Assembly (NCBI RefSeq): GCF_963921235.1
Contig: NC_086097.1
Span: 168,890,001 to 168,954,000 of the forward strand
Direction: 5' to 3'
DNA: 64,000 bases
Origin: Mobula hypostoma
Taxonomy: Eukaryota
In this document: one piece after another, positions 6,501 to 57,215 of the stretch
Numbering within the stretch: position 1 is the stretch's first letter
Layout: every line of letters starts with the position of its first letter
Program-made: the position numbers and the translations under genes
Notes under the pieces: generated by a model
The model's database searches: none
Seen by the model: only the letters and a program-made list of their open reading frames with translations
Told to the model about the DNA's origin: nothing

Positions 6501-6891
6501 TCTAAGCAGCACTGCTGTGTTTATAAAAAAGGGTATTCTAAATAAAAACTGAACTTGCATATCGTCACAAAGAACCATTAGGATACATTTTTTAAAAATG
6601 CTAACATTGCTTAACATGTTGTGCTTAGATAAGTTAATTGTACTTAGCATTCTTTTGTACAGGGATGCTAGTATCAATTGTTAAATTGTTCAAATGCAGT
6701 TATATTTCCTACATTTGAGGTGATTTTTATTTAAACCTTTATATTGTTTTTAGTTCCACTGTCCTTTACATCAAACATAAATAATAAGCAAATACTGAGG
6801 TCATACATGGTCACTCCTTTAGATAGGCCAGTGCTGTTTTATCCTCTTCCAAACCCAACCAGGGAGCTGGAGAAATAAATGTTATTCTACT

Positions 6892-8048
6892 AACACACAT
6901 TAAAGTTGCTGGTGAACGCAGCAGGCCAGGCAGCATCTCTAGGAAGAGGTACAGTCAACATTTCGGGCCAAGGCCCTTCATCAAGACTAACTGAAAGAAG
7001 AGCTAGTAAGAGATTTGAAAGTGGGAGGGGGAAGGAGAGATCCAAAATGATAGGAGAAGACAGGAGGGGGAGGGATGGAGCCAAGAGCTGGACAGGTGAT
7101 AGGCAAAAGGGATATGAGAGGATCATGGGACAGGAGGCCCAGGGAGAAAGAAAATGGGGAGGGGGGGGACCCAGAGGATGGGCAAGGGGTATAGTGAGAG
7201 GGACAGAGGGAGAAAAAGGAGAGAGAGAAAGAGAATGTGTGTATATAAATAAGTAACGGATGGGGTACGAGGGGGTGGTGGCATTAGCGGATGTTTGGGA
7301 AGTCAATGTTCGCGCCATCAGGTTGGAGGCTACCCAGATGGAATATAAGGTGTTGTTCCTCCAACCTGAGTGTGGCTTCATCTTTACAGCAGAGGAGGCC
7401 ATGGATAAACATATCAGAATGGGACGTTCTGTCCGCCAGAGGAAGCAGGATCTCCCAGTGGCCACACATTGTAATTCCACGTCCCATTCCCATTCTGATA
7501 TGTCTATCTACGGCCTCCTCTACTGTAAAGATGAAGCCACACTCAGGTTGGAGGAACAACATCTTATAATCCGTCTGGGTAGCCTCCAACCTGATGGCAT
7601 GAACATTGACTTCTCTAACTTCTGCTAATGTCCCTCATACCCCATCCGCTTATTTATATACACACATTCTTTCTCTTTCTCTCTCTCCTTTTTCTCCCTC
7701 TGTCCCTCTCACTATACCAGTTGCCCATCCTCTGGGTTTTCACCCCCTCCCCATTTTCTTTCTCCCTGGGCCTCCTGTCCCATGATCCTCTCATATCCCT
7801 TTGCCAATCACCTGTCCAGCTCTTGGCTCCATCCCTCCCCCTCCTGTCTTCTATCATTTTGGATCTCCCCCTCCCCCTTACACTTTCAAATCTCTTACTA
7901 GCTCTTCTTTCAGTTAGTCCTGACGAAGGGTCTCAGCCCGAGACATCGACTGTACCTCTTCCTGGAGATGCTGCCTGGCCTGCTGCATTCACCAGCAACT
8001 TGGATGTGTGTTACTTGAATTTCCAGCATCTGCAGAATTCCTCATGTT
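6892..8048. mobile_element. Penelope-like element in inverted (fold-back) configuration with GIY-YIG C-terminal remnant
   Basis: Arms about 6892-7423 and 7488-8012 are imperfect reverse complements. Encodes DLPVATH..STSHSHSDM...LEEQHLI.RLGSLQPDGMNIDFSNF. 14-bp TSD aatgttattctact at 6878-6891 and 8049-8062. Confidence 0.88.
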
Positions 8049-10248
8049 AATGTTATTCTACTCTTGCTTTCATCTGATCATTGCAATCTTGTAACTCAAA
8101 ATACGACCAACTAGAAATAAGTTAATTCCATAACGTTTAAAAATTTCTGGTTATGATCACTTTGGTACATTTGACAGGCTTTGAAACTGCTATGCAATTA
8201 TGAACTATTTGCTCTCTGATCTAAATACCAGCCCAGGTTTTGCCCTGTATCAACTTTGAAAACACCCAACATTCAGACCCAATTTTTTCATCCTGAGCTC
8301 TTCCTGCAGATGCCAACTACACTTCTCAGAACATACATTGACAATTTATGAAGGAAAAGTGAAGGACGCCATTAGAAATACTGAAGAACCATCAAATTTT
8401 TTGACTATTACCTTTCCTAAATTTTCTCTGCATTTAAAAGTGTTCAGCATTTTAAATGTTCCATTCAGTAATTAAAAGAACAAAAGAAATATACATCATT
8501 CTTTAAATCAATTCTGGTTCACTGGATGTGAATCAAATAAAAGACAAAACAAATGGTGAATATTCTATTGCATTTTAATGCTGACTTAATAAATCTTCAC
8601 TGAAAGATTACACTTACAATTGAGAATTTCCAAACCAACCATCTAGCTATCCCCCAATTAAGGGGACTATCATCAAGCTCAATATCTTTAGCTTTTTACA
8701 TTAACATTACAGGAGAATAATTTTTAAGAAAATAAACTAAGTAGATATTTTCATGTAATATTTTGCAAACTTTTGTTTACGAAAAGAGCAAAGCACGTGT
8801 AGGCATTCATAAATTTTATGCCATTGTTAAAATTTGTCATTTATACATTATCATACATTATAAACAATGTATTTTTCTACCCATTGGGTAGGATATGTGC
8901 ATAATATATTTAAGTTATATACAGCACCTTACAAATAAACATAAGAGACACAACAATAGAAGCACCATATTGTGAGGCACAACCAAGGTGGGAGTTCAGA
9001 GTGCGAGGGGATTCCTATATCAGCTCAAACCTGAAAATGAGGCACCTTATCTGCTCACATGCAAACCTCCTCAGAATATACATAGACCAGTTTCTACCAC
9101 AGCTAACAGAATAAGCAAAGATAGAAAACATGTCTTAGGATGTACCATATAATGATAAATAATATACAAATAATTAAAGGCGATTGCAGCAATAGAAGTA
9201 GCAACATCACAGGACAAGTTAAATGTCAATCACTGAAAATAATACAGCTTTCTTTACCAACAAAATTGCTCAAGAACCAAAGAAACACAGCAACTAAAAT
9301 TCTTTCATTCAAGAGTTAGACAGGATACTGCAAGGCATGAAAAAGGTCAAATATGAAATATCTTTTAAATAGCAAAAGTGCAATATTGCCTCGTGTTGTG
9401 AAAATGCAGCTGCAATAGCAAAGATAGCATTAAGTATTAAGGTTTCTCTTCTTGCAGGTTTAAGAAATTAAGCCTTGTCTGAGATTAGTTCCGACTTCAT
9501 GCCATTCTTTGTTTGAGGTTTTATGCAATGGGAGGAGGCTAAATTTGTAGGCAAGATTCTAAAAGGATCCTTCATAGCCCTTCAGAAAAAGTGTCTAAAT
9601 CCATGAAGATACTCTGAAAATACATTAATAGTTATACCTGTTATGTTATAAACATTACAAAGACACAAAAAAGCAAATCTAGGAAACTGTAAAAGGTGGT
9701 GGAATGACTTGTTGAATTTTAACCTCTATACAAATCTGCAGTTATCTAGATCAGTTATAGTAAATACCACTTTAATAATGCTTTACTTAATGGAAAAACT
9801 GCCTTAATATGTTGATTATACCTATATATACATAAAGCTTTTCCTTTGTGTACAAAAGGCAGAGTATTAGATATTTGGTGACATACGAAATGTACATTTT
9901 AGCCCAGTATGTTGTTCACAGCATAGTGATCATCATTCATTTGGACACACCTGCCCTCGCAAATGGTTCTTTTTAAGCACAACCATGCATTATGTGTGGG
10001 AAGGCTCTGAATCTTTGCTTGCCATATTATAGCTTCTGCATGGAGCAAGAGGAGGAGGGCATGTGACAAGATAGGAAAGTAATCATTTGGCATGTGGCAC
10101 AAGCAAAGCACTTTATAGTGCTAAACTGTAATAATTCATTAACAACACACTGATGCCATAATAGGGCCTTTGCTAAATTATTGGAAAGAAAACCCACCAT
10201 AATCTGCAAGAGTTGTAAGTTATAATAATGGAGTAACCATCTCACTTT

Positions 10249-10418
10249 TACTACACACACAAAATGCTGGAGAAATTCAACAAGCCAGGCAGCCTCCTGA
10301 TGAAAGGGCTCAGTCAAGGTTTATTCCCCTCCATAGATTCTGCCTGACCTGCTGAGTTTTTCCAGCATTTTGTATTGCTCGAGATTTCCAACAACTGCAG
10401 AATCTCTTCTGTTTATAG
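10249..10418. mobile_element. Short non-autonomous Penelope-derived fold-back element
   Basis: acacacaaaatgctgga...ccagcattttgt termini with a residual CTGATGA; TSD ctcacttt at 10241-10248 and 10419-10426. Confidence 0.7.
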
Positions 10419-12799: not shown

Positions 12800-13324
12800 C
12801 TGAAAGCAAGAAAAAAACATTTCAACACTGGATTTGGACTGAAGAAATGAGAACTTTTACATCTTTTTACAGCTTTGAAAATGCAATTGTTTAATGCACC
12901 TTTCAGCTTTACACAAAATAACATTAACCATATGTCCATTATGTTGAGCAATAGTACCATTATAAAAATAGTCAATTTAAAAAGAGAAAGTAGTAATCAG
13001 CTAATATCAAATCTATTGACTTGCGAGCTGCAGCCACCAACCACCAATATTATTTGGACTTTGCAATTACACATGGCACAAACTAGCTTTGGATTTGTAT
13101 CTGTTGTGGTAGATAGATATCACAACAGACTGATCCCAAAGGAAATTACAGTGTTGCAGTAACATTACAAGTGCACAGATGTACAAATATTAGAAGAGAA
13201 AAAAAGAATAAAAGAAGGTTACCTTAAAAATAAACACAAAATATTCCGCAGATGCTGGGGTCAAAGCAACACTCACAACACGCTGGAGGAACTCGGCAGG
13301 TCGGGCAGCATCCGTGGAAACAAT

Positions 13325-13362
13325 CAGTCAACGTTTCAGGCCGGAACCCTTCATCAGGACTG
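13325..13362 (-). ncRNA. Minimal type I hammerhead ribozyme motif (Penelope pLTR type), intact core
   Basis: Minus strand reads cagtc-CTGATGA-agg gttccgg cct-GAAA-C-GTT-gactg: stem I cagtc/gactg, both core boxes, palindromic ACGT stem III and a GUU cleavage triplet. Confidence 0.7.
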
Positions 13363-13384
13363 AAGAGGGAAGGGGCATCCTCTT

Positions 13385-13422
13385 CAGTCCTGACGAAGGG
13401 TTCCGGCCCGAAATGTTGACTG
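13385..13422 (+). ncRNA. Minimal hammerhead motif, second copy with stem III CpG decayed
   Basis: cagtc-CTGACGA-agggttccggccc-GAAA-TGTT-gactg. Confidence 0.6.
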
Positions 13423-13889
13423 ATCGTTTCCACGGATGCTGCCCGACCTGCCGAGTTCCTCCAGCGTGTTGTGAGTGTTACCTTAAAAATAAGATGTACA
13501 AGATCTACAAGTCGAAGATTACCAAGATTTCCATATTCACACTGATAAGATGGTAGTGCAAGAATTACTGCAATATTATACAGTAATGGGTGCACATTCA
13601 TACCATCCAGAAAAGAAGTAATGGTAGTATTGCCCAGGGTATCCATGATAGCAGGGTGTGGTAAACAAAAGTTAATAACAGCCTAACAGGATGTAATGCA
13701 GCAAAGCTCTGGATAACAGTAAATTATAGAGTTTTAAGAACAAGTTTTGGAGCTTTAAAAATGAGATGAAATGTAGCACGATTTATAGTATTGGAATAAA
13801 AAGTTACTTAAAGAGAAAGGTTAAATTACAAAAGATGAAAATTGAAAGCTAAAAGAAGATTAAAAACATGTAGTTATTCATTTTATTTT

Positions 13890-23670: not shown

Positions 23671-25981
23671 ACGCTTATCAGAGACGCTGTCTACACTACC
23701 GCCCTCGAACATCTCGGACCAGCAACCTGAAGAAACCAAGACTGGTTCAATGAGAATGATGAAGAAATACAGGCACTACTAATGGAGAAACATCAACATT
23801 ACAGAGCGCATCAGAACGACCCCACGTCACTAGCCAAGAAAGACGCCTTTACCAACGCAAGAAGAAAGGTGCAGAAAAAACTTTGCGAGATGCAGGACAG
23901 CTGGTTCAGCAAGAAGGCCGATGAAATCCAGGGCTATGCAGACAGCCACGACATAAAGCGCTTCTACGATGCGCTTAAGGCTGTATACGGACCCCAGTCC
24001 TCCGGCTCCTCACCCCTCCTCAACGCAGATGAGATGCAGCTGCTGACAGAGAAGAAGTAGATTCTGGATTGGTGGGCTGAGCACTTTAACAATGTCCTTA
24101 ACCGCCCTGCCGACATCAACGATGAGGCCATTGCCCGCCTGCCCCAGGTAGAGATCAACAAGAACCTCGACACCCTCCCCACAGTAGATGAAGTCAGGAA
24201 GGCAGTGAAGCAACTCTCCTGTGGCAAAGCGCCTGGATCCGATGCAATCCCTGCTGAGGTATACAAAGCAGGAGGCCCTGTCATGATGCAAAAGCTGACT
24301 GTACCCTTCCAGTCCATGTGGAAAAAGGTACAGGTCCCACAACAGCTGAAAGATGCCAGCATAGTCCACATCTACAAGAGGAAAGGCAACCGCCAGTCTT
24401 GCGACAACCACCGAGGCATCTCCCTCTTGTCCATTGCGGGGAAGATTCTGGCCCGTGTCCTGCTCAACCGCCTTCTCCAACATCTTGAGCAAGGTCTGCT
24501 CCCAGAAAGCCAGTGCGGCTTCCATGCTGAACGTGGGACTGCGGACATAATTTTTGCTGCGCGCCAACTCCAGGAAAATTGCCAGGAGCAACACAGCGAC
24601 CTCTTCGTGACCTTTGTCGATCTAACCAAGGCTTTAGATACGGTCAGCAGAGAAGGCTTGTGGAAGATCATGGAGAAGTTTAGCTGCCCCAGCAAGTTCA
24701 TCACAATCGTCCGGCAGTTCCACGACGGTATGATGGTGAAAGTTCTGGATGATGGCGACGAGTCGGAGACCTTCCCAGTGACAAATGGCGTCAAACAAGG
24801 CTGCATTCTTGCCCCGACTCTGTTCAGTATGGTATTCTCTGCCATGCTGACAGATGCCTTTCATAACTACAAAGAAGGAATCCACGTCAGGTACAGGACT
24901 GACGGCAGGTTGTTCAACCTTAGGCGCCTGCAGGCAGTTACAAAGGTGCGAGAGACTGTCATCAGAGACTTGTTGTTTGCTGATGACTGCACACTCAACG
25001 CCAGCACAGAGCAGGAGATGCAGCGTGAAATAGACTGCTTCTCACAAGCCTGCGACAACTTCGGTCTCACTATCAGCACCAAAAAGACCGAAGTTATGTA
25101 CCAGCCTGCCCCAGGAAAGCCATACCAGGAGCCGCGCATCACGGTGAAGGGCCAGAACCTCCAGGCAGCCGACAACTTCACCTACCTGGGCAGCAGACTC
25201 TCTCGCGCAGTGAACATAGACGCTGAGGTCAACAACAGGATTGCCAAAGCCAGCGCCGCCTTTGGGAGACTCCGTGAGAACGTCTGGGAGCGGAGAGGAC
25301 TCAGCCTTACCACCAAGCTGAAGGTCTACTGTGCAGTGGTCCTTACCACCCTCCTTTACGCCAGCGAGACCTGGACTGTCTACAGCAGACACGCCAAACA
25401 GCTCAACCATTTTCACCTGAGCTGTCTCCGCAGACTCCTCCACATCAGGTGGCAGGACAAGGTCCCCGACACGGAAATCCTGGAACGAGCTGGGCTCTGC
25501 AGCGGCTACACCCTCCTGCTGAAAGCCCAAGCCAGGAGGGCTGGACATGTGGTCAGAATGCCAGACAGCCGATTGCCTAAGCAGCTGCTGTACGGAGAAC
25601 TGTGTCAGGGCAAGCGCTCAGTCGGGGGGCAGAAGAAACGTTACAAAGACTGCCTGAAAGCATCCCTCAAAGGACTGGGTGTCGACATCAACACATGGGA
25701 GACGCCTGCCCTCGACCGTCCAGCTTGGCGCAGCAAGATCACCACAGGAGCCCGTGCAGCTGGAGTCAGGCGCAGCATCGAGGCGTAACGAAAGCGTGCT
25801 GTGCGCAAGGCCCGAGCAGCATCCACTGCCACGACAGCACCCACCCACCCACTTGTGTCCCACATGTGGGCGAGCCTTCAGGGCCCGGATTGGCCTCATC
25901 AGTCACCTCCGGACCCACAGCCACCAATCTCCCATTTGACTTTGAAGCCATGGTCATCTTCGACTACGAAGGACGAACAAC
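23671..25981 (+). mobile_element. RTE-clade (BovB-like) LINE, 5'-truncated, young, near-intact RT
   Basis: 527-aa ORF 24205-25788 with KAPGSDAIPAE, RGISLLS, LPESQCGF, GVKQGCILAP, LLFADD; C-terminal C2H2 finger CPTCGRAFRARIGLISHLRTH in a shifted frame; TSD atcctagt at 23661-23668 and 25982-25989. Confidence 0.93.
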
Positions 25982-27192: not shown

Positions 27193-30100
27193 TTTTGTAA
27201 TTTATTTTTTATTGAAGTTCATCATCAAACAAACATTTCCATAAGATGTATTTCAGATATTGTACATATATATCATATAGTCATATATGCCACAAATCTC
27301 CACATAATATTTATCTGAGGTATACACCTATAGAAAGGTGAGGAAAGAAAGAACAAGCAAAAGGAGAAAACTATGTACAAGTAGGGAGTGATCTTTTTTC
27401 ACAACATATTCAGCGATTTGTGAGAATAAAATCAGGCCTATGAGGTGTTATGTAGTTTCCCAGTATGAATCAAATTGTTCCAACTGTGATTAACAGATGC
27501 TGTTATCTTCATTTTGTAAATGCCCATTGTAATTTCCATCCATGTGTTTAAAGTTGGGCTCTCCTGTGATAACCATTTCCTGGTAAGGGTCTTTTTACCA
27601 GCCACCAGCAGTATATTCATTAAATATTTATCTCTTTTCAACCATTCTTGAGGTACATACCCAAAATATATGGTCTTAATTTCTAAGGGTATTTCACATT
27701 TAAAAATATCTTGCAGGGCATTGTGTATCCCACTCCAATAGTCTTTGATAACGGGCCATTTCCAGAAAATATGATAATGGTTTGCATTTTGATTTCCACA
27801 ATTTCTCCAGCAAACAGGGAGGTTACTATCATAATGGGATTTCTGAGAGGGTGTAATAAAATATCTTATCAAGTTTTTCCATCAGAACTCCCATTTCTGT
27901 GAACTGGTACATTTCCATTGATACCTCCATATTATTGTCCATTCTTCCTCAGATATAATTATCCCTCCTTCTCCGATTTTGTTTTAATGTATGAAGTCGA
28001 ATGTGTTTTAAGATTTGACAAACCCTTATACACACTTGAAATTATTCTACTACCGTTGTCTGAATTATATGCTTTTCTAAATAGCTCTATCAGACATGTA
28101 CTAGTCTTGGTTGCATTTTTAACCATCCTATCAGCATACTGTCGCATCTGTAAATACCAACATAAGTCTTGTCTTTCTAATAAGACCATAAGACAAAGGA
28201 GCAGAAGTCGGCCATTCGGCCCATCGAGCCTGCTCCGCCATTTTATCATGAGCTGATCCATTCTCCCATTTAGTCCCACTCACCCGCCTTCTCACTATAA
28301 CCTTTGATGCCCTGGCTACTCAGATACCTATCAATCTCTGCCTTAAATATACCCAATGACTTGGCCTCCACTGCCGCCCGTGGCAACAAATTCCATAGAT
28401 TCACCACCCTCTGACTAAAAAAATTTCTTCGCATTTCTGTTCTGAATGGGCGCCCTTCAATCCTTAAGACATGCCCTCTCATACTAGACTCCCCCATCAC
28501 GGGAAACAACTTTGCCACATCAACTCTGTCCATGCCTTTCAACATTCGAAATGTTTAGACCATAAGACCATAAGACAAAGGAGCAGAAGTAGGCCATTCA
28601 GCCCGTCGAGTCTGCTCCACCATTTTTATCACGAGCTGATCCATTTTCTCCTATTTAGTCCCACTCCCCTGCCTTCTCACCATAACCTTTGATGCCCTGG
28701 CTACTCAGATACCTATCAATCTCTGCCTTAAATATACCCAATGACTTGGCCTCCACTGCTGCCCATGGCAACAAATTCCATAGATTCACCACCCTCTGAC
28801 TAAAAAAATTTCTTCGCATTTCTGTTCTGAAAGGGCGCCCTTCAATCCTTAAGTCATGCCCTCTCGTACTAAACTCCCCCATCATGGGAAACAACTTTGC
28901 CACATCCACTCTGTCCATGCCTTTTAACATTCGAAATGTTTCTATGAGGTCTCCCCTCATTCTTCTAAACTCCAAGGAATACAGTCCAAGAGCGGACAAA
29001 CGTTCCTCATATGTTAACCCTCTCATTCCCGGAATCATTCTAGTGAATCTTCTCTGTACCCTCTCCAACGTCAGCACATCCTTTCTTAAATAAGGAGACC
29101 AAAACTGCCCACAGTACTCCAAATGAGGTCTTACCAGCGCCTTATGGAGCCTCAACATCACATCCCTGCTCCTATACTCTATTCCTCTAGAAATGAATGC
29201 CAACATTGCATTCGCCTTCTTCACCACTGACCCAACCTGGAGGTTAACTTTAAGGGAATCCAGTACGAGGACTCCCAAGTCCCGTTCCATCTCAGAACTT
29301 TGAATTCTTTCCCCATTTAAATAGTAGTCTGCCAGTTTATTTTTTCTGCCAAAGTGCATAACCATACACTTTCCAACATTGTACTTCATTTGCCACTTCT
29401 CTGCCCATTCTTCCAATCTATCCAAGTCTCTCTGCAGACTCTCCGTTTCCTCAGCACTACCAGCTCCTCCACCTATCTTCGTATCTATCTTCGTTTCTAT
29501 GAGGTCTCCCCTCATTCTCCTAAACTCCAAGGAATACAGTCCAAGAGCGGACAAACGTTCCTCATATGTTAACCCTCTCATTCCCGGAATCATTCTAGTG
29601 AATCTTCTCTGTACCCTCTCCAACGTCAGCACATCCTTTCTTAAATAAGGAGACCAAGACTGCCCACAGTACTCCAAGTGAGGTCTCACCAGCGCCTTAT
29701 AGAGCCTCAGCATCACATCCCTGCTACTATACTCTATTCCTCTAGAAATGAATGCCAACAGCACTACCGACCCCTCCACCTATCTTCGTATCATCAGCAA
29801 ACTTAGCCACAAAGCCATCTATTCCATAAACCAAATCGTTCATGTACAATGTAAACAGAAGCGGCCCCAACATGGACCCCTGTGGAACACCACTGGTAAC
29901 CGGCAGCCAACCAGAACAGCATCCCTTTATTCCCACTCTCTGGTTCCTGCCAATCAGCCAACGCTCTATCCAAGTATGTAACTTTCTCGTAATTCCATGG
30001 GCTCTTATCTTGTTAAGTAGCCTCATGTAGCACCTTGTCAAAGGCCTTCTGAAAATCCAAATATACAACATCCACTACATCTCCCTTGTCCAGCATACTT

Positions 30101-31943: not shown

Positions 31944-33072
31944 TAATGGAGGGAAGCACCTTCACAGATAACGCAAAACAAAATGAATAATGTAAAACAG
32001 CCCAGTAACCAGCCCCATCAAGATGAATGGTCAACACCTCAGTTTTCAGTAGCACTTTCCCCTGCACCCACTGAACAAAGCAATACTTTAGCAACTTGAC
32101 CATGATTCAAATCCACTTGAATACTTGAGGTTCTGTCCTCTTTTTACAAACTCACTTTGCACCTCTTCCAGGCTGATCATCAAAAACAGGAATCACTGGT
32201 AGAACCTTGCTTCACCGGTAGGACCACTGCTCATCACCCAATGATCTCAACAGCCGTCAAGAGCCTATCTAGTGTTGCCACTGCTTTAGGAATGTTGACT
32301 GGCCATCCGATAGCAATACAATATATATTTTTCTCTAACTACTCCACATGCAGGTGTGGGGCCATTCTGAAGACACTTACACATCCCCAGGACAATGAAA
32401 ATCCCACAGGAAATTTGAGATTAAGTACAGAGCAGGGATTTTGTAGTATTCCTGACAACCACCACCTGAAAAGGACCAAATCAGTCAACTGCAACTAAAA
32501 GAGGTAATGACAGTACTGCACGTTCCTACCAGCCACTGAGCCAGAAGTGTGAGCTTTTTCTTTCTCCCTCAAATGGTTAATCATAAAGCCAGTATATCCA
32601 GGACATGCCCTCTTCTCATTGCTACCATCAGAGAGGAGATATAAGAGCTTGAATATATCCAGTCAATGTTTTTAAAAGTTTTTTCCCCTCTATCAAATTC
32701 TGAACAGTCCATGAACACTACCTCTCTAATTGCTCTTTCTGCACTACATTTATTTTTAATATATCTTATTTTAACTAATAGTAATTATTTTATGTATTAC
32801 ACTTTTTGGTGCCACAAAACAACAAATTTCATTACATATGTCAGTGATAATAAACCTTATTCTGATACAGTAAATTAGCTTCTGGGTAATTAATAATTGA
32901 ATATATTTCTTAATTAGCATCCATCCAATTAACTCTTTGTGCACCGTTTGTACTTTAATTACCTGCCCAGACCACACTTTAAAACTCATCAGTTCAGTTT
33001 AACAAAAAGTTAATTCAGATTATTTGCCTCAAACACAGATTCCTAACCTAATGCAAACACTGAATTTTATGA

Positions 33073-33258
33073 GCCACGCACACAATATGCTGGAGGAACT
33101 CAGCAAGTTAGGCCTTTGTCAGGCCCTTTCATCAGTATCTTGGCTCAAAACATCAAACTTTTTATTCCTTTCCATGGATCCTGCCCGACTTGCTGAGTTC
33201 CTCGAGCATTTTGTATGTGTTGCTCAAGATTTCCAACTGCAGAAGCTCTTGTGTTTAA
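33073..33258. mobile_element. Short Penelope-derived fold-back element
   Basis: cacaatatgctggaggaactcagc...gctgagttcctcgagcattttg; flanked by tgaattttatga (33061-33072) and tgagttttatga (33259-33270). Confidence 0.65.
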
Positions 33259-46960: not shown

Positions 46961-47489
46961 TTCAGATCTGTCACAAGTCCAGTAGAATACTATTGCAGAG
47001 AAAAACAATAGCATTATGGAAAATCAGAGGCTGCTTGGAAGTGACTTCCAACAGGAATTTGTAATGTAGAATTGAACATCATAGCATAACAGATTCTGCA
47101 GATGCTGGAAATATTGAATAACACATGCAAAATATTGAAGAAACTTAGCACGTCAGGGCGGCATTTATAGGATGTCCACAGATGCTGTCTGACTTGCTGA
47201 GCTCCTCCAGCATTCTGCGTGTGTTGCTAAGGACTGATATATAACTGGTTTATTATTGGCACATATACTGACACAATGAAAAGCTTTTGTTTTGTGCACC
47301 ATCCAGATAGATCATATCATACATATTTACATTAGGTACGAAAAGAAAACAGAAAACAGTTACAGAGAAAATTCAGTGTGGGCAGACAAATGAATGCAAG
47401 AGTCAGGACTAGATAGATTTGGAGATTAAGACTTCAAGAGTTTGTTTCTTCTTTGTGTACAAAAGGTCCATTCATGAGTCTGATAACAA

Positions 47490-50229: not shown

Positions 50230-50712
50230 GGATGCAGGTGATATTGGAAAGGACAATTCTTATTGTTCAACCCAAATTTCTTCTGTATTTGAGCGGTTTG
50301 CTTGGTCACTCAGAAGGCAGTTAAGATTCAAAATAAGTCCATGGATTTACACAAACACGAGAAAATCTGCGGATGCTGGAAATCTAAAGCAACCCACACA
50401 AAACACTGGAGGAACTTAGCAGGCCAGGCGGCATCTATGGTAAAGAGTAAACGGTCAACGTTTCAGGTCAAGGTGAAGGGTCTCGGCCTGAGACATTTGA
50501 CTGTTTATTCTTTTCTACAGATTATGCCTGGCTTGCTGACTTCCTCCAGCATTTTATGTGTGTTGCATACACACCAGACCAGTAGATTTCCTTCACTAAA
50601 GGACATCAGTGAACCTGATGTGAATTTGCAATCCAATCATTGTAACTGGTGCTAGGTTTTAATTCCAGATGTATTCAGAATCATTAGTCCAGATCTCTGG
50701 ATTACCAGTCGA
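50230..50712 (-). mobile_element. Decayed shark Deu-SINE-like (SacSINE1-like) element with a nested Penelope-derived fold-back (about 50350-50566)
   Basis: agatttccttcactaaaggacatcagtgaacc and ttaattccagat motifs; nested aaacacgagaaaatctgcggatgctgg...ccagcattttatgtgtgttgc. Confidence 0.5.
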
Positions 50713-52350: not shown

Positions 52351-52966
52351 CATATAACCATACCTCGTAAATTTGTGTTTAACCAAAAATCACTTCAAAA
52401 AATCCTATCTTTAATGCTTCAAAATTAAAATATCAATGTCAATTGGTATCTGTGATGTTGTGATTAAATTAAAATACATTTGTCTATGTGTGCTGCACTT
52501 ACCTCTGGGTTGTGAAGTCAAAGGACAATATTAACTTATTGTTCTATCCAAAGCTACACTAAATGGAATTTAAAGACACAATTTTCCAAAAAATGTTCAC
52601 AGCATCCTCTCCTATCACTTAGGTGAACTGAGAGAACCTGTTAAACACGATCTAGTTTTTGCATTCTCTGTATGTCAAAAGAGGAATGAAAACAAAATTC
52701 CAGTTGCACAAGTACTTAAGAGTTTTAGTTTTTTGTCTTAACATTACAAATATTCTGATTACAATTGGATATCTTTATATTGAAAGCAAAAATTATTGTA
52801 AATACAAGATGAATATTTTATTCAATTTAATCAACAGCATAACCTAAAATATCGTCCAATGAATTATATAATATTCATCTCATATGAACAACATCTTGAT
52901 TTATCTGAATAATTTATTTTTGCTGATCATTTTAATGTGAGTGGGGGAAGAGGTCTTTTTAAACAT

Positions 52967-53367
52967 AGAACATAGAATAGTACAGCACATTACAGGCCCT
53001 TCGGCCCACAATGTTGTGCCGACCCTCAAACCCTGCCTCCCATATAACCCCCCACCTTAAATTCCTCCATATACCTGTCTAGTAGTCTCTTAAACTTCAC
53101 GAGTGTATCTGCCTCCACCACTGACTCAGGCAGTGCATTCCACGCACCAACCACTCTCTGAGTAAAAAACCTTCCTCTAATATCCCCCTTGAACTTCCCA
53201 CCCCTTACCTTAAAGCCATGTCCTCTTGTATTGAGCAGTGGTGCCCTAGAGAAGAGGCGCTGGCTATCCACTCTATCCATTCCTCTTATTATCTTGTACA
53301 CCTCTATCATGTCTCCTCTCATTCTCCTTCTCTCCAAAGAGTAAAGCCCTAGCTCCCCTAATCTCTG
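52967..53367 (-). mobile_element. Young CR1 3' end (about 400 bp)
   Basis: LGELGLYSLERRRMRGDMIEVYKI...FFTQRVVGAWNALP; (catagaa)n tail; ttaaacat at 52959-52966 and 53387-53394 as probable TSD. Confidence 0.9.
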
Positions 53368-54142: not shown

Positions 54143-55930
54143 CATAGGAACAGAATTAAGCCACTTGGTCCATCGAGTCTGCTCTGCCATTCCATCATGA
54201 CTGATTTATTATTATTCCTCTCTACTACATTCTCCTGCCTTCTCCCCTTAACTTTGACACCCTGATTAGCCAAGAATCTATCAACCTCCGCTTTAAATAT
54301 ACTCAATAACTTGGTCTCTACAGCTATCCATGGCTATGAATGCCACAGATTCACCACTCTCTGGCTAAAGAAGTTCCTTCCATTTCTGTTCTATTTGGAC
54401 ATTCCTCTATTCCTCTGGCTCTAGACTCACCCACTATAGGAAACAACCTCTCCACATCCATTCTATCTAGACCTCTCAATATTCAATGAGTTTCAATGAG
54501 ATCCCCCCTTATTCTTCTAAACTCCAGAGAGTATAGGCCCAGAGCCATCAAAAGCTCCTCATATATTAACGCTTTCAAACCTGGGATCATTCTTGTGAAC
54601 CTCCTCTGGCCCCTCTCCAATGCCAGCACACCTTTTCTTAGATAAGGAGACCAAAACTGCTCAAAGTGTAGTCTGACCAATGCCTCATCCTTTCTCTTAT
54701 ATTCTAGCCTTTTCGAAATGAATGTTAAAATTGTATTTGCCTTTCTTACCACTGACTCAACCTGCATGTTAATCTTTAGGGTATCCTGCACAAGGACGCT
54801 CTGGTCCCATTGCACCTCTGAGTATTGAAGTTTCTCCCCATTTAGAAAATAAGCAAAGACTTTATTCTTTCTACCAAAATGCATGAACATCTTTCCTTCT
54901 CCCCCACTTTCTGCTTTCTGCAGGGATTGCTCCCTGCACAATTCCCTTGTCCATTCATCCGTCCCCACTGATCTCCCTCCTGGCACTTATCCTTGAAAGT
55001 GGAACAAGTGCTACACCAGCCCATATACCTCCTCCCTCACCACCATCCAGGGCCCTAAGCAGTCCTTCCATGTGAGGCAACACTTCACCTGCGAGTCTGA
55101 TGGGGTCATTTACCGTGTTTGGTGCTCCCGGTGTGGCCTCTTGTACATCGGTGAGACCCGATGTTGATTTGAAGACTGTTTCACCAAGTATCTACGCTCC
55201 ATCCGTCAGAACAAGCAGGATCTCCCAGTGGCCATCCATTTTAATTCCACTTACCATTCCCATTCCACTAAGTCCATCCATAGCCTTCTCCACTGTCGTG
55301 ATGAGGCCACATTTAGGTTGGAGGAACAACACCTTATATTCCATTTGGGTAGCCTCCAACCGGATGGCATGAACATCAGTTTCTCAAATTTTCAGTAACG
55401 CCCCCCAACCCCATCCCCTTTCCCCTCTTTCTCCTTATCTCCTTGCCTGTCCACCACCTCCTTCTGGTGCTCATCCCCCCTTTTCTTTCTTCCACGTCCT
55501 TCTGTCTCTTTCACCAGTCAACTTCCCAGCTCTTTACTTCAACCTTTCCCTCCAGGTTTCACCTATCACCTGGTGGTTCTCTCTCCCCTCCCCCCAACAT
55601 TTGAAATCTGCCCCTCAGCTTTTTTTCTTCAGTCTTGTACATTTTTCCATACATACTGTCTGGCCTGCTGAGTTCCTCTAGCATTTTTTGTGTGTTGCTC
55701 GGATTTCCAGCATCTGCAGATTTTCTGTTGTTTGCAACGAACATACATTTTCCAACACTATATTCCATCTGCCACTTCATTGCCCATTCACCCAATCTGA
55801 CCAAGTCTTTCTGCAGACTCCCAACTTCCTCAATACTACCTGCCTTTCCACCTATCTTTGTATCGGCTGCAAATTTGGCCACAAAGCCATCAATTCTGTA
55901 AACCAAATCTTTGACATATAATGTGAGAAG
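54143..55930 (-). mobile_element. CR1 3' half interrupted by a Penelope element
   Basis: KFAADTKIGG...KWQMEYSVGKCM|HFGRKNK...RRFTRMIPG is continuous once 54891-55738 is removed. Confidence 0.85.
54891..55738 (+). mobile_element. Penelope-like element 3' part with GIY-YIG endonuclease remnant
   Basis: 55105-55161 translates to VIYRVWCSRCGLLYIGETR, followed by DLPVAIHFN...LEEQHLIFHLGSLQPDGMN; TSD gaacat at 54885-54890 and 55739-55744. Confidence 0.9.
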
Positions 55931-55984: not shown

Positions 55985-57215
55985 GTGTCAGGGGGCAGAA
56001 GGGAGTGTAGTTACTATTACTAGGGAGGAGGTGCTTGCAGGGCTGAAAGGTCTGAAGGTAGATAAGTCACCTGGACTAGGTGAACTACCCTTGAGGGTTC
56101 TGAAAGAGGTATCTGAAGAAATTGTTGAGGCATTAGTAATGATCTTTCAACAATAGCTAGATTCTGGCATGGCTCTGGAGGACTGGACATTTGCAATATC
56201 ACTCCACTCTCCAAGAAGGGAGAGAGGAGGGATAAAGGAAATTATAGGCCAGTTAACCTGACCTCAGTGGTTAGGAAGATGTTGGAGTCAATAGTTAAGG
56301 ATGAGGTTTTGGGGTACCTGGAGGTAAATGATAAAATGGACCAAAGTCAGCATGAACCTCTTAAGGGAAAACCCTGCCTGACAAATCTTTTGGAATTCTT
56401 TGAGCAAGTAACAAGCAGAACAGACAAAGGACAACTGGTGGATGTTGTGTACAGTACTTGGATTTTCAAAAGGCCTTTGACAAGGTGCTGCACAAGTGGC
56501 TGCTTGGCAAGATAAGATTCCATGATATTACAGAAAAGATACATAGAACACAGAATAGTACAGCACAGTACAGCCCCTTCGGCCCACAATGTTACGCTGA
56601 CCCTCAAACCCTGCCTCCCATATAATCCCCCACCTTAAATTCCTCCATATACCTGTCTAGTAGTCTCTTAAACTTCATGAGTGTATCTGCCTCCACCACT
56701 GACTCAGGCAGTGCATTCCACGCACCAACCACTCTCTGAGTAAAAAAACCTTCCTCTAATATCCCCCTTGAACTTCCCACCCCTTACCTTAAAGCTATGT
56801 CCTCTTGTATTAAGCAGTGGTGCCCTGGGGAAGAGGTGCTGGCTATCCACTCTATCTATTCCTCTTAATATCTTGTATACCTCTCTCATGTCTCCTCTCA
56901 TCCTCCTTCTCTCCAAAGAGTAAAGCCCTAGCTTTACTTAACAGATATACAGAATTATTATTAATTACTTAGCTATACTAGCATGGATAGAGCATAGATG
57001 TGTTCTGCAGGGGTCAGTTTGGGACCGCTTCTTTTTATGTTGTAGTTCAATGATTTGGATGACTGAATTGATAGCTTTGTGGGCAAGTTTGTGGCTGATA
57101 CGAGGATAGGTGGAGGAGCAAGTAGTGTTGTGGAAGCAGGGAGGCTGCATAGGGATTTGGATAGGTTAGGAGAATGGGCAAAGAAGTGGCAGATGGAATA
57201 CAGTGTTGGGAAGTT
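55985..57215 (+). mobile_element. CR1 RT fragment interrupted by a younger CR1 3' end
   Basis: LKGLKVDKSPG, KGKPCLTNLLEFFE and KWQMEYSVGK. Confidence 0.8.
56540..56933 (-). mobile_element. Young CR1 3' end, near-identical to 52967-53355
   Basis: Direct sequence comparison; ERRRMRGDMREVYKILRGIDRVDSQHLFPRAP. Confidence 0.9.

Follow-up and report, generated by a model that had tools for sequence, protein, structure and literature searches.

A fold-back with two hammerhead motifs in the last coding intron of LDLRAD4 in a ray is probably a young Penelope-like insertion of a known pattern

The closest described relatives of the locus analyzed here are the complex insertions of endonuclease-positive (EN+) Penelope-like elements; PMC8557442 gives as their typical features a tail of 30-40 bp at one end and, beside the 5' end, a 5'-truncated copy in inverted orientation, and calls undefined the step on which two-start priming and self-priming would differ. 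The same inverted pattern with target-site duplications (TSDs) appears in PMC3846280, where self-priming on an antisense template is favored over two priming events and pLTR sequences are held to suffice for mobilization in trans. With the Anolis enzyme of PMC11167929, both strands are nicked and extended at A/T-rich DNA, two reverse-transcription start sites bound the tail, and the hammerhead is unneeded. As to hammerheads themselves, PMC4209133 gives the G-C pair at 10.1-11.1 as highly conserved, with no cleavage by a min-HHR monomer and low-level cleavage by dimers, and already describes paired min-HHRs on opposite strands, about 100-700 bp apart. Retrozymes are a further comparison: as outlined in bioRxiv 10.64898/2026.07.22.740005, the non-LTR kind forms head-to-tail tandem units with same-strand type I hammerheads, and the LTR kind has direct LTRs, a type III hammerhead and a 4-bp TSD. 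Finally, Penelope repeats are heavily edited in the lizard and in X. tropicalis, according to PMC5625713 and PMC10636886, respectively.

Against this background we analyzed a window of 64,000 nucleotides (64 kb) from Mobula hypostoma, in which an insert of 246 bp (13234-13479) lies between 16-bp direct repeats (Table 1). We hold it to be very probable that this insert consists of two head-to-head 3' ends of an abundant Penelope-like element, with one tail and a 16-bp TSD, likely made in a single integration, and that its hammerheads are passengers predicted to be inactive. It is an ordinary young remnant of the known Penelope insertion pattern: like the EN+ complex insertions of PMC8557442 and PMC3846280, it combines an inverted, 5'-truncated, head-to-head copy with a 34-nt tail at one end, a TSD of variable length, an A/T-rich site and a pLTR hammerhead; unlike them it is far more truncated, has neither an ORF nor a direct pLTR, and its arms meet across a 10-nt loop. 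With the min-HHR pairs of Schistosoma mansoni (PMC4209133) it shares opposite strands, close spacing, a bulge after position 9 and a palindromic 15.2-16.2, but its motifs are 20 nt apart and have a shorter stem II (3-4 bp) and a GUU triplet, and the host is a vertebrate. For Poseidon of Anolis carolinensis (PMC11167929) the proposed likeness lies in two start points bounding the tail, nicking of both strands, an A/T-rich target and an unneeded hammerhead; the ray relatives differ in carrying a CX4CxxC linker, and the ray family is known here from sequence alone. Animal non-LTR retrozymes, as portrayed in the preprint, resemble the insert in being non-coding and pLTR-derived with a type I hammerhead, whereas the insert is a single inverted pair on opposite strands in which an intramolecular dimer is impossible; from LTR retrozymes it differs in its inverted arms, type I motif and 16-bp TSD. 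The palindromic ADAR substrates of PMC5625713 (X. tropicalis Harbinger and lizard Penelope) are likewise self-folding repeats of ~200 nt with expected tight dsRNA, but those repeats are edited, whereas the ray palindrome arose from integration rather than from a palindromic consensus and its dsRNA is a prediction.

Table 1. Coordinates of the insert, its host gene and related copies in the 64-kb window
Feature	Position	Strand	Basis or remark
Tail, 34 nt, unpaired, left arm only; parent element's 3' extremity	13234-13267	-	Aligns with 3' ends of other family copies; agrees with the 30-40-bp tail in PMC8557442 and PMC11167929
Left arm, 101 bp; 3' part of pLTR, element sense on pre-mRNA strand	13268-13368	-	
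Loop, 10 nt	13369-13378	-	13369-13377, further parent sequence of left copy; 13378, one base absent from parent continuation
Right arm, 101 bp; inverted, 5'-truncated copy, tail absent	13379-13479	+	
TSD, left copy	13218-13233	.	Exact 16-bp direct repeat, 13/16 A/T
TSD, right copy	13477-13492	.	Exact repeat; first 3 bases overlap right-arm end
Minimal type I hammerhead motif, pre-mRNA sense	13324-13363	-	Descriptor match; isolated fold
Second hammerhead motif, antisense to LDLRAD4	13384-13423	+	Descriptor match; fold
Last coding intron of LDLRAD4, 2,034 nt	14833-12800	-	tblastn with P0008 and splice-site reading
LDLRAD4 C-terminus exon	12799-12266	-	Homology to Mobula cluster
Upstream LDLRAD4 exons	14890-14834 and 34508-34344	-	tblastn/splice-site reading
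Composites	6892-8048, 10253-10412, 13234-13479, 33072-33254, 47085-47228, 50355-50577		
Older composite built in the same way but larger, 1.16 kb	6878-8062	.	TSD of 14 bp, exact; only one arm with tail; arms ~540 bp and 93% alike
Single fragment of the family, longer: GIY-YIG coding region, decayed, then same pLTR end and tail	54874-55728	+	

The sequence-only reading had described a perfect fold-back of about 245 bp with arms of about 100 bp, few mismatches and a loop of about 11 nt. The fold-back is real and its arms, 101 bp each, indeed differ little, but it is not perfect: the arms match at 97 of 101 positions, the loop is one nucleotide shorter, and the 246-bp insert includes the one-sided tail, which that reading did not mention. 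All four mismatches between the arms are CpG transitions and 14 of the 18 CpGs in the arms survive, in line with the preserved CpGs and young age already proposed. The MFE of the fold-back was -211 and -226 kcal/mol on the two strands (z -25 and -32), and none of 200 shuffles on either strand was as stable. At 13295/13452 the two arms have G, although A makes up 94% of family depth there in run X1; this shared minority allele makes it likely that the arms came from one template or that one was copied from the other.

The host gene on the minus strand is LDLRAD4, with 98% identity to a protein cluster named for Mobula birostris. The earlier placement of the fold-back in the last intron of this gene, about 430 bp from a splice acceptor, held: it lies in the last coding intron, with 434 nt between it and the acceptor and 1,354 nt between it and the donor, and the 16-bp flanking repeat reported with it is exact. 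The flank at ~13131-13200 is another high-copy repeat, older and starting at a (GATA)n-like run (summed depth ~1e5), in or beside which the insertion occurred (13131-13233) and which probably corresponds to a LINE 3' end in antisense orientation. Orthologous flank contigs end at 13160 in organism B and at 13119 in organism C, where an older repeat starts or is about to start, and the flanks of organisms A and B show 5 differences in 311 bases. Set against these flank differences, the lack of any non-CpG change between the arms and the identity of the two TSD copies suggest that the fold-back insertion is recent.

Of 13 window regions with similarity to the insert that were examined, six are head-to-head composites (this insert and five more). 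In the composites one arm extends to the family 3' end or close to it, and the short arm, which has no tail, has its outer end at reference position 30-36 in five cases and at 22 in the sixth; the six centers are all different. Two composites have exact TSDs (16 and 14 bp), two have imperfect ones (9/10 and 11/12) and two have none that is credible. The arms of the four oldest are only 75-83% alike, and some of these four may be separate neighboring insertions. The composite at 6878-8062, which lies ~4 kb past the LDLRAD4 stop codon, contains, in both arms, the C-terminal end of a GIY-YIG ORF. The arm of the insert is 76-79% identical to the ends of 6892-8048 and 55635-55728, both of which follow GIY-YIG remnants. 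A further decayed Penelope-like GIY-YIG coding fragment was seen at 26982-26736.

Among proteins related to the family, P0001-3 have a YIDD motif, and Pfam GIY-YIG matches were obtained for three of five at E 5e-4 to 2e-3, slightly under the curated cut-off; their Atlas neighbors are GIY-YIG/HTH_animal proteins. Pfam applied to three ORF frames of the window returned 0 families. By these comparisons the insert's family is an endonuclease-positive Penelope-like element, with the link to an ORF running through the sister subfamilies to which the arm is 76-79% identical. A CX4CxxC linker, present in the sister-subfamily proteins P0001, P0002, P0003 and P0006, favors Neptune/Nematis, for which PMC8557442 gives CX2-5CxxC between RT and EN, over Poseidon, an assignment dropped because of this linker. 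No paper fitting this Penelope-like family in rays was found in open-access text. The public ray gene models P0005 (ATP synthase subunit C3-like) and P0007 (neuromedin-U receptor) include the C-terminus of the element's ORF, and are likely annotation chimeras or exonized repeats.

The sequence-only reading had proposed a search for other copies with the same central junction and had named their absence as a refuting outcome. Contigs of 4 public runs, out of 24 candidate runs, were aligned to 12850-13400; their summed depth, which is not a copy number and is affected by the poor assembly of palindromes, was 7-9 over the unique flank and 0.7-2.4 million over the arm. At the junction it fell from 280,297 in the loop bin to 82 in the next bin in run X1 (~3,400-fold), from 184,094 to 16.5 in run X5 (depth 0 at 13378) and from 170,350 to 0 in run X9 (depth 0 over 13382-13400). 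Past the junction, depth in X1 was 82-115 as compared with 9 on the single-copy flank, and at most 3 contigs lay beyond 13400. Contigs running over an end of the aligned interval numbered 4 of 22,012, 1 of 17,698 and 1 of 8,700 in X1, X5 and X9, and in every run the left-flank contig is among them. Behind 13377, 81, 45 and 21 contigs of the same runs entered the same purine-rich sequence (agreement 0.73-0.83); because they do so, nine of the ten loop bases are, on these alignments, sequence of the parent element, and the junction as read from them is the truncation point plus one extra base, with microhomology absent. Contig loose ends near 13231 and 13265 (agreement 0.34-0.39) were left out of the evidence on the tail boundary. 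At least 15 joints were seen in the contigs, six of them opposite-strand, all at different places and each in one contig at a depth of 5-19; three joints for which no joint type was stated were left out of the fold-back count. The junction of this locus was itself absent among the at least 15 contig joints listed, so the depth test has no clean positive control. With as many as 3 mismatches allowed, the junction motif matched the window once. The near single-copy depth past the junction, the differing positions of the other fold-back joints and the single window match speak against such sister copies, so that the refuting outcome largely applies; judged by contig depth, the junction is for the most part not a family feature, with X1 allowing a handful of copies.

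A minimal-hammerhead descriptor applied to both strands of the whole window gave 2 matches, both inside the insert, which bears out the two Penelope-type minimal type I cores proposed earlier. The pre-mRNA-sense motif has a 6-bp stem I, a CUGAUGA core, a bulged A, stem II, the ACGU palindrome and a GUU triplet, with the predicted cut after 13330. It had been described as having an intact core; its single-stranded core and palindrome are indeed preserved, whereas CpG decay at 13338 has left a G-U pair at 10.1-11.1. In the plus-strand motif the G-C pair at 10.1-11.1 is kept and the stem III palindrome is broken by CpG decay at 13414 (AUGU for ACGU). Both copies retain C3-A9, G12-A14, A15.1-U16.1, H17, stems I and II and the bulged base after position 9; neither joins G10.1-C11.1 with a palindromic 15.2-16.2, a combination that the ancestral state had and that CpG decay has since removed. 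Stem III of both motifs has no loop and a dimer is therefore required; the self-duplex energy was -5.7 kcal/mol for the ACGU copy versus -1.4 for the copy without the palindrome, and no second intact same-strand motif that could serve as a partner was found by the descriptor on either strand of the window. As isolated 40-mers, the motifs formed stems I and II with a probability of 0.66-1.0. An Rfam search, proposed in the sequence-only reading, returned no hammerhead family with E cut-offs of 5 or 10; miRNA-type matches were rejected as far below gathering scores and reflecting hairpin shape. Across 13 window copies, most of them decayed, pairing in the stems was kept in 68% of cells as against 24-39% in slid controls, a covariation not above that of shuffles (110/500). 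The GUU triplet was found in 72-99% of subfamily depth in contigs, a range open to mapping bias, and with that qualification seems to be what this subfamily has. At the cleavage triplet, other window copies, from older subfamilies, have a GUC-type sequence instead.

The head-to-head layout has the consequence that, on either strand, the antisense arm is transcribed ahead of the ribozyme. In context the hammerhead stems had probabilities of at most 4e-20 (minus strand) and 1e-19 (plus strand), versus the values given above for the isolated motifs, and stayed at or below 1e-19 at every transcript length tried; with the antisense arm removed, the hammerhead probability was 0.0025 in one context. 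These foldings are equilibrium calculations, with proteins and kinetics outside the model, and they predict that both hammerheads are held in an inactive state. The fold-switch proposed earlier is not predicted, because the antisense arm always emerges before the ribozyme; no kinetic window is predicted, and a ribozyme switch is not expected. What did survive is the proposal that read-through RNA forms a long hairpin, a 101-bp duplex with three G-U pairs and one A-C mismatch being predicted in the pre-mRNA sense, with an MFE far beyond that of shuffles. As an ADAR substrate in LDLRAD4 pre-mRNA this duplex is plausible. Contigs of run X15 (presumed RNA) aligned to the family arm and not to most of the unique flank, and are uninformative for this locus.

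We propose that the insert formed as follows. The element's GIY-YIG endonuclease would nick both strands of the A/T-rich site, 13-16 nt apart, and reverse transcription would start, one start per nick, at two known points of the element RNA, the tail end and the inner edge of the tail. Both cDNAs would end shortly beyond the hammerhead, at points 9 nt from each other, and host repair would end-join them with one extra base, after which there would have been CpG decay only. In LDLRAD4 pre-mRNA the antisense arm, transcribed first, would capture the emerging ribozyme into the 101-bp duplex, which would perhaps be edited by ADAR and would leave with the spliced-out intron. The main alternative, within the same element class, is a snap-back in which one cDNA or antisense template folds, primes itself and has the second arm copied from the first. 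Such self-priming would account for arms identical save for CpG decay and for the minority allele in both, and is what PMC3846280 argues for at inverted junctions; set against it are a junction with neither palindrome nor microhomology, a parent sequence that continues differently after 13377, and the need for copying to halt at the inner edge of the tail, as it would have done in five of the six window composites, an edge that two start sites explain directly. We regard self-priming as unlikely though well worth keeping in view, as sequence alone cannot choose between it and two-event priming.

A different possibility is that the fold-back formed once and was then moved whole by the Penelope enzyme as a small non-autonomous family, the MITE-shaped retrozyme of the sequence-only reading. 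The clean TSD, the young age and the presence of both priming ends would suit such a unit, as would the depth past the junction in X1, which exceeds that of single-copy flank, and the sufficiency of the pLTR for trans mobilization (PMC3846280). The steep loss of depth in X1 and its fall to zero in X5 and X9, the few X1 contigs past 13400, the scatter of the other fold-back joints and the single junction match in the window all weigh against it, and a 101-bp duplex would presumably be a poor template for reverse transcription. In MITEs, inverted repeats reach both termini, and copies are many and uniform in length and internal structure. Here the tail makes the ends asymmetric, the motifs lie on opposite strands and the junction stands near single-copy level in the contigs; since the junction is not common to the family, the insert is neither a MITE nor a retrozyme in our reading, and we consider a mobile unit very improbable. 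The same low standing applies to its boldest form, a young family whose 246-nt hairpin, carrying both priming ends and a pair of hammerheads that silence each other, would itself retrotranspose and seed near-perfect dsRNA into ray introns. Slightly less credible still, and to our minds scarcely to be entertained, is the view of the insert as a functional RNA element of LDLRAD4, either a ribozyme switch or a hairpin acting on last-intron splicing by way of editing or small RNAs. A 101-bp duplex so weakly interrupted, in a 2.0-kb intron and so close to the acceptor, could be read in its favor, together with the edited Penelope repeats of the lizard and X. tropicalis (PMC5625713 and PMC10636886); to be held against it are the order of transcription on both strands with hammerhead folds below 1e-18, the want of a second intact same-strand motif in the window, the G-U at 10.1-11.1, CpG changes of the neutral type only, and the failure of min-HHR monomers to cleave in PMC4209133.

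Read as two joined Penelope-like 3' ends, the single locus carries little weight, being one young copy of a known pattern. A copy so young and short nevertheless displays the signature of integration cleanly, in its tail, its truncation points 9 nt apart, its extra base and its minority allele, and ray genomes, rich in such junctions, could discriminate two-start priming from self-priming. The six fold-backs in 64 kb correspond to about 1 per 11 kb and, if that is typical, a large share of the intronic dsRNA of rays may stem from Penelope ends; no paper on Penelope-derived intronic dsRNA in rays was found in open-access text. Elsewhere in the window, LINE-type RT fragments are locally duplicated at 94-97% identity (28180-28941, 28938-29760 and 52963-53354 / 56541-56933), as tandem repeats of 380, 268 and 393 bp. 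An open frame of 575 aa at 24061-25788, antisense to LDLRAD4 within one of its introns, resembles what we take to be an RTE-type LINE reverse transcriptase.
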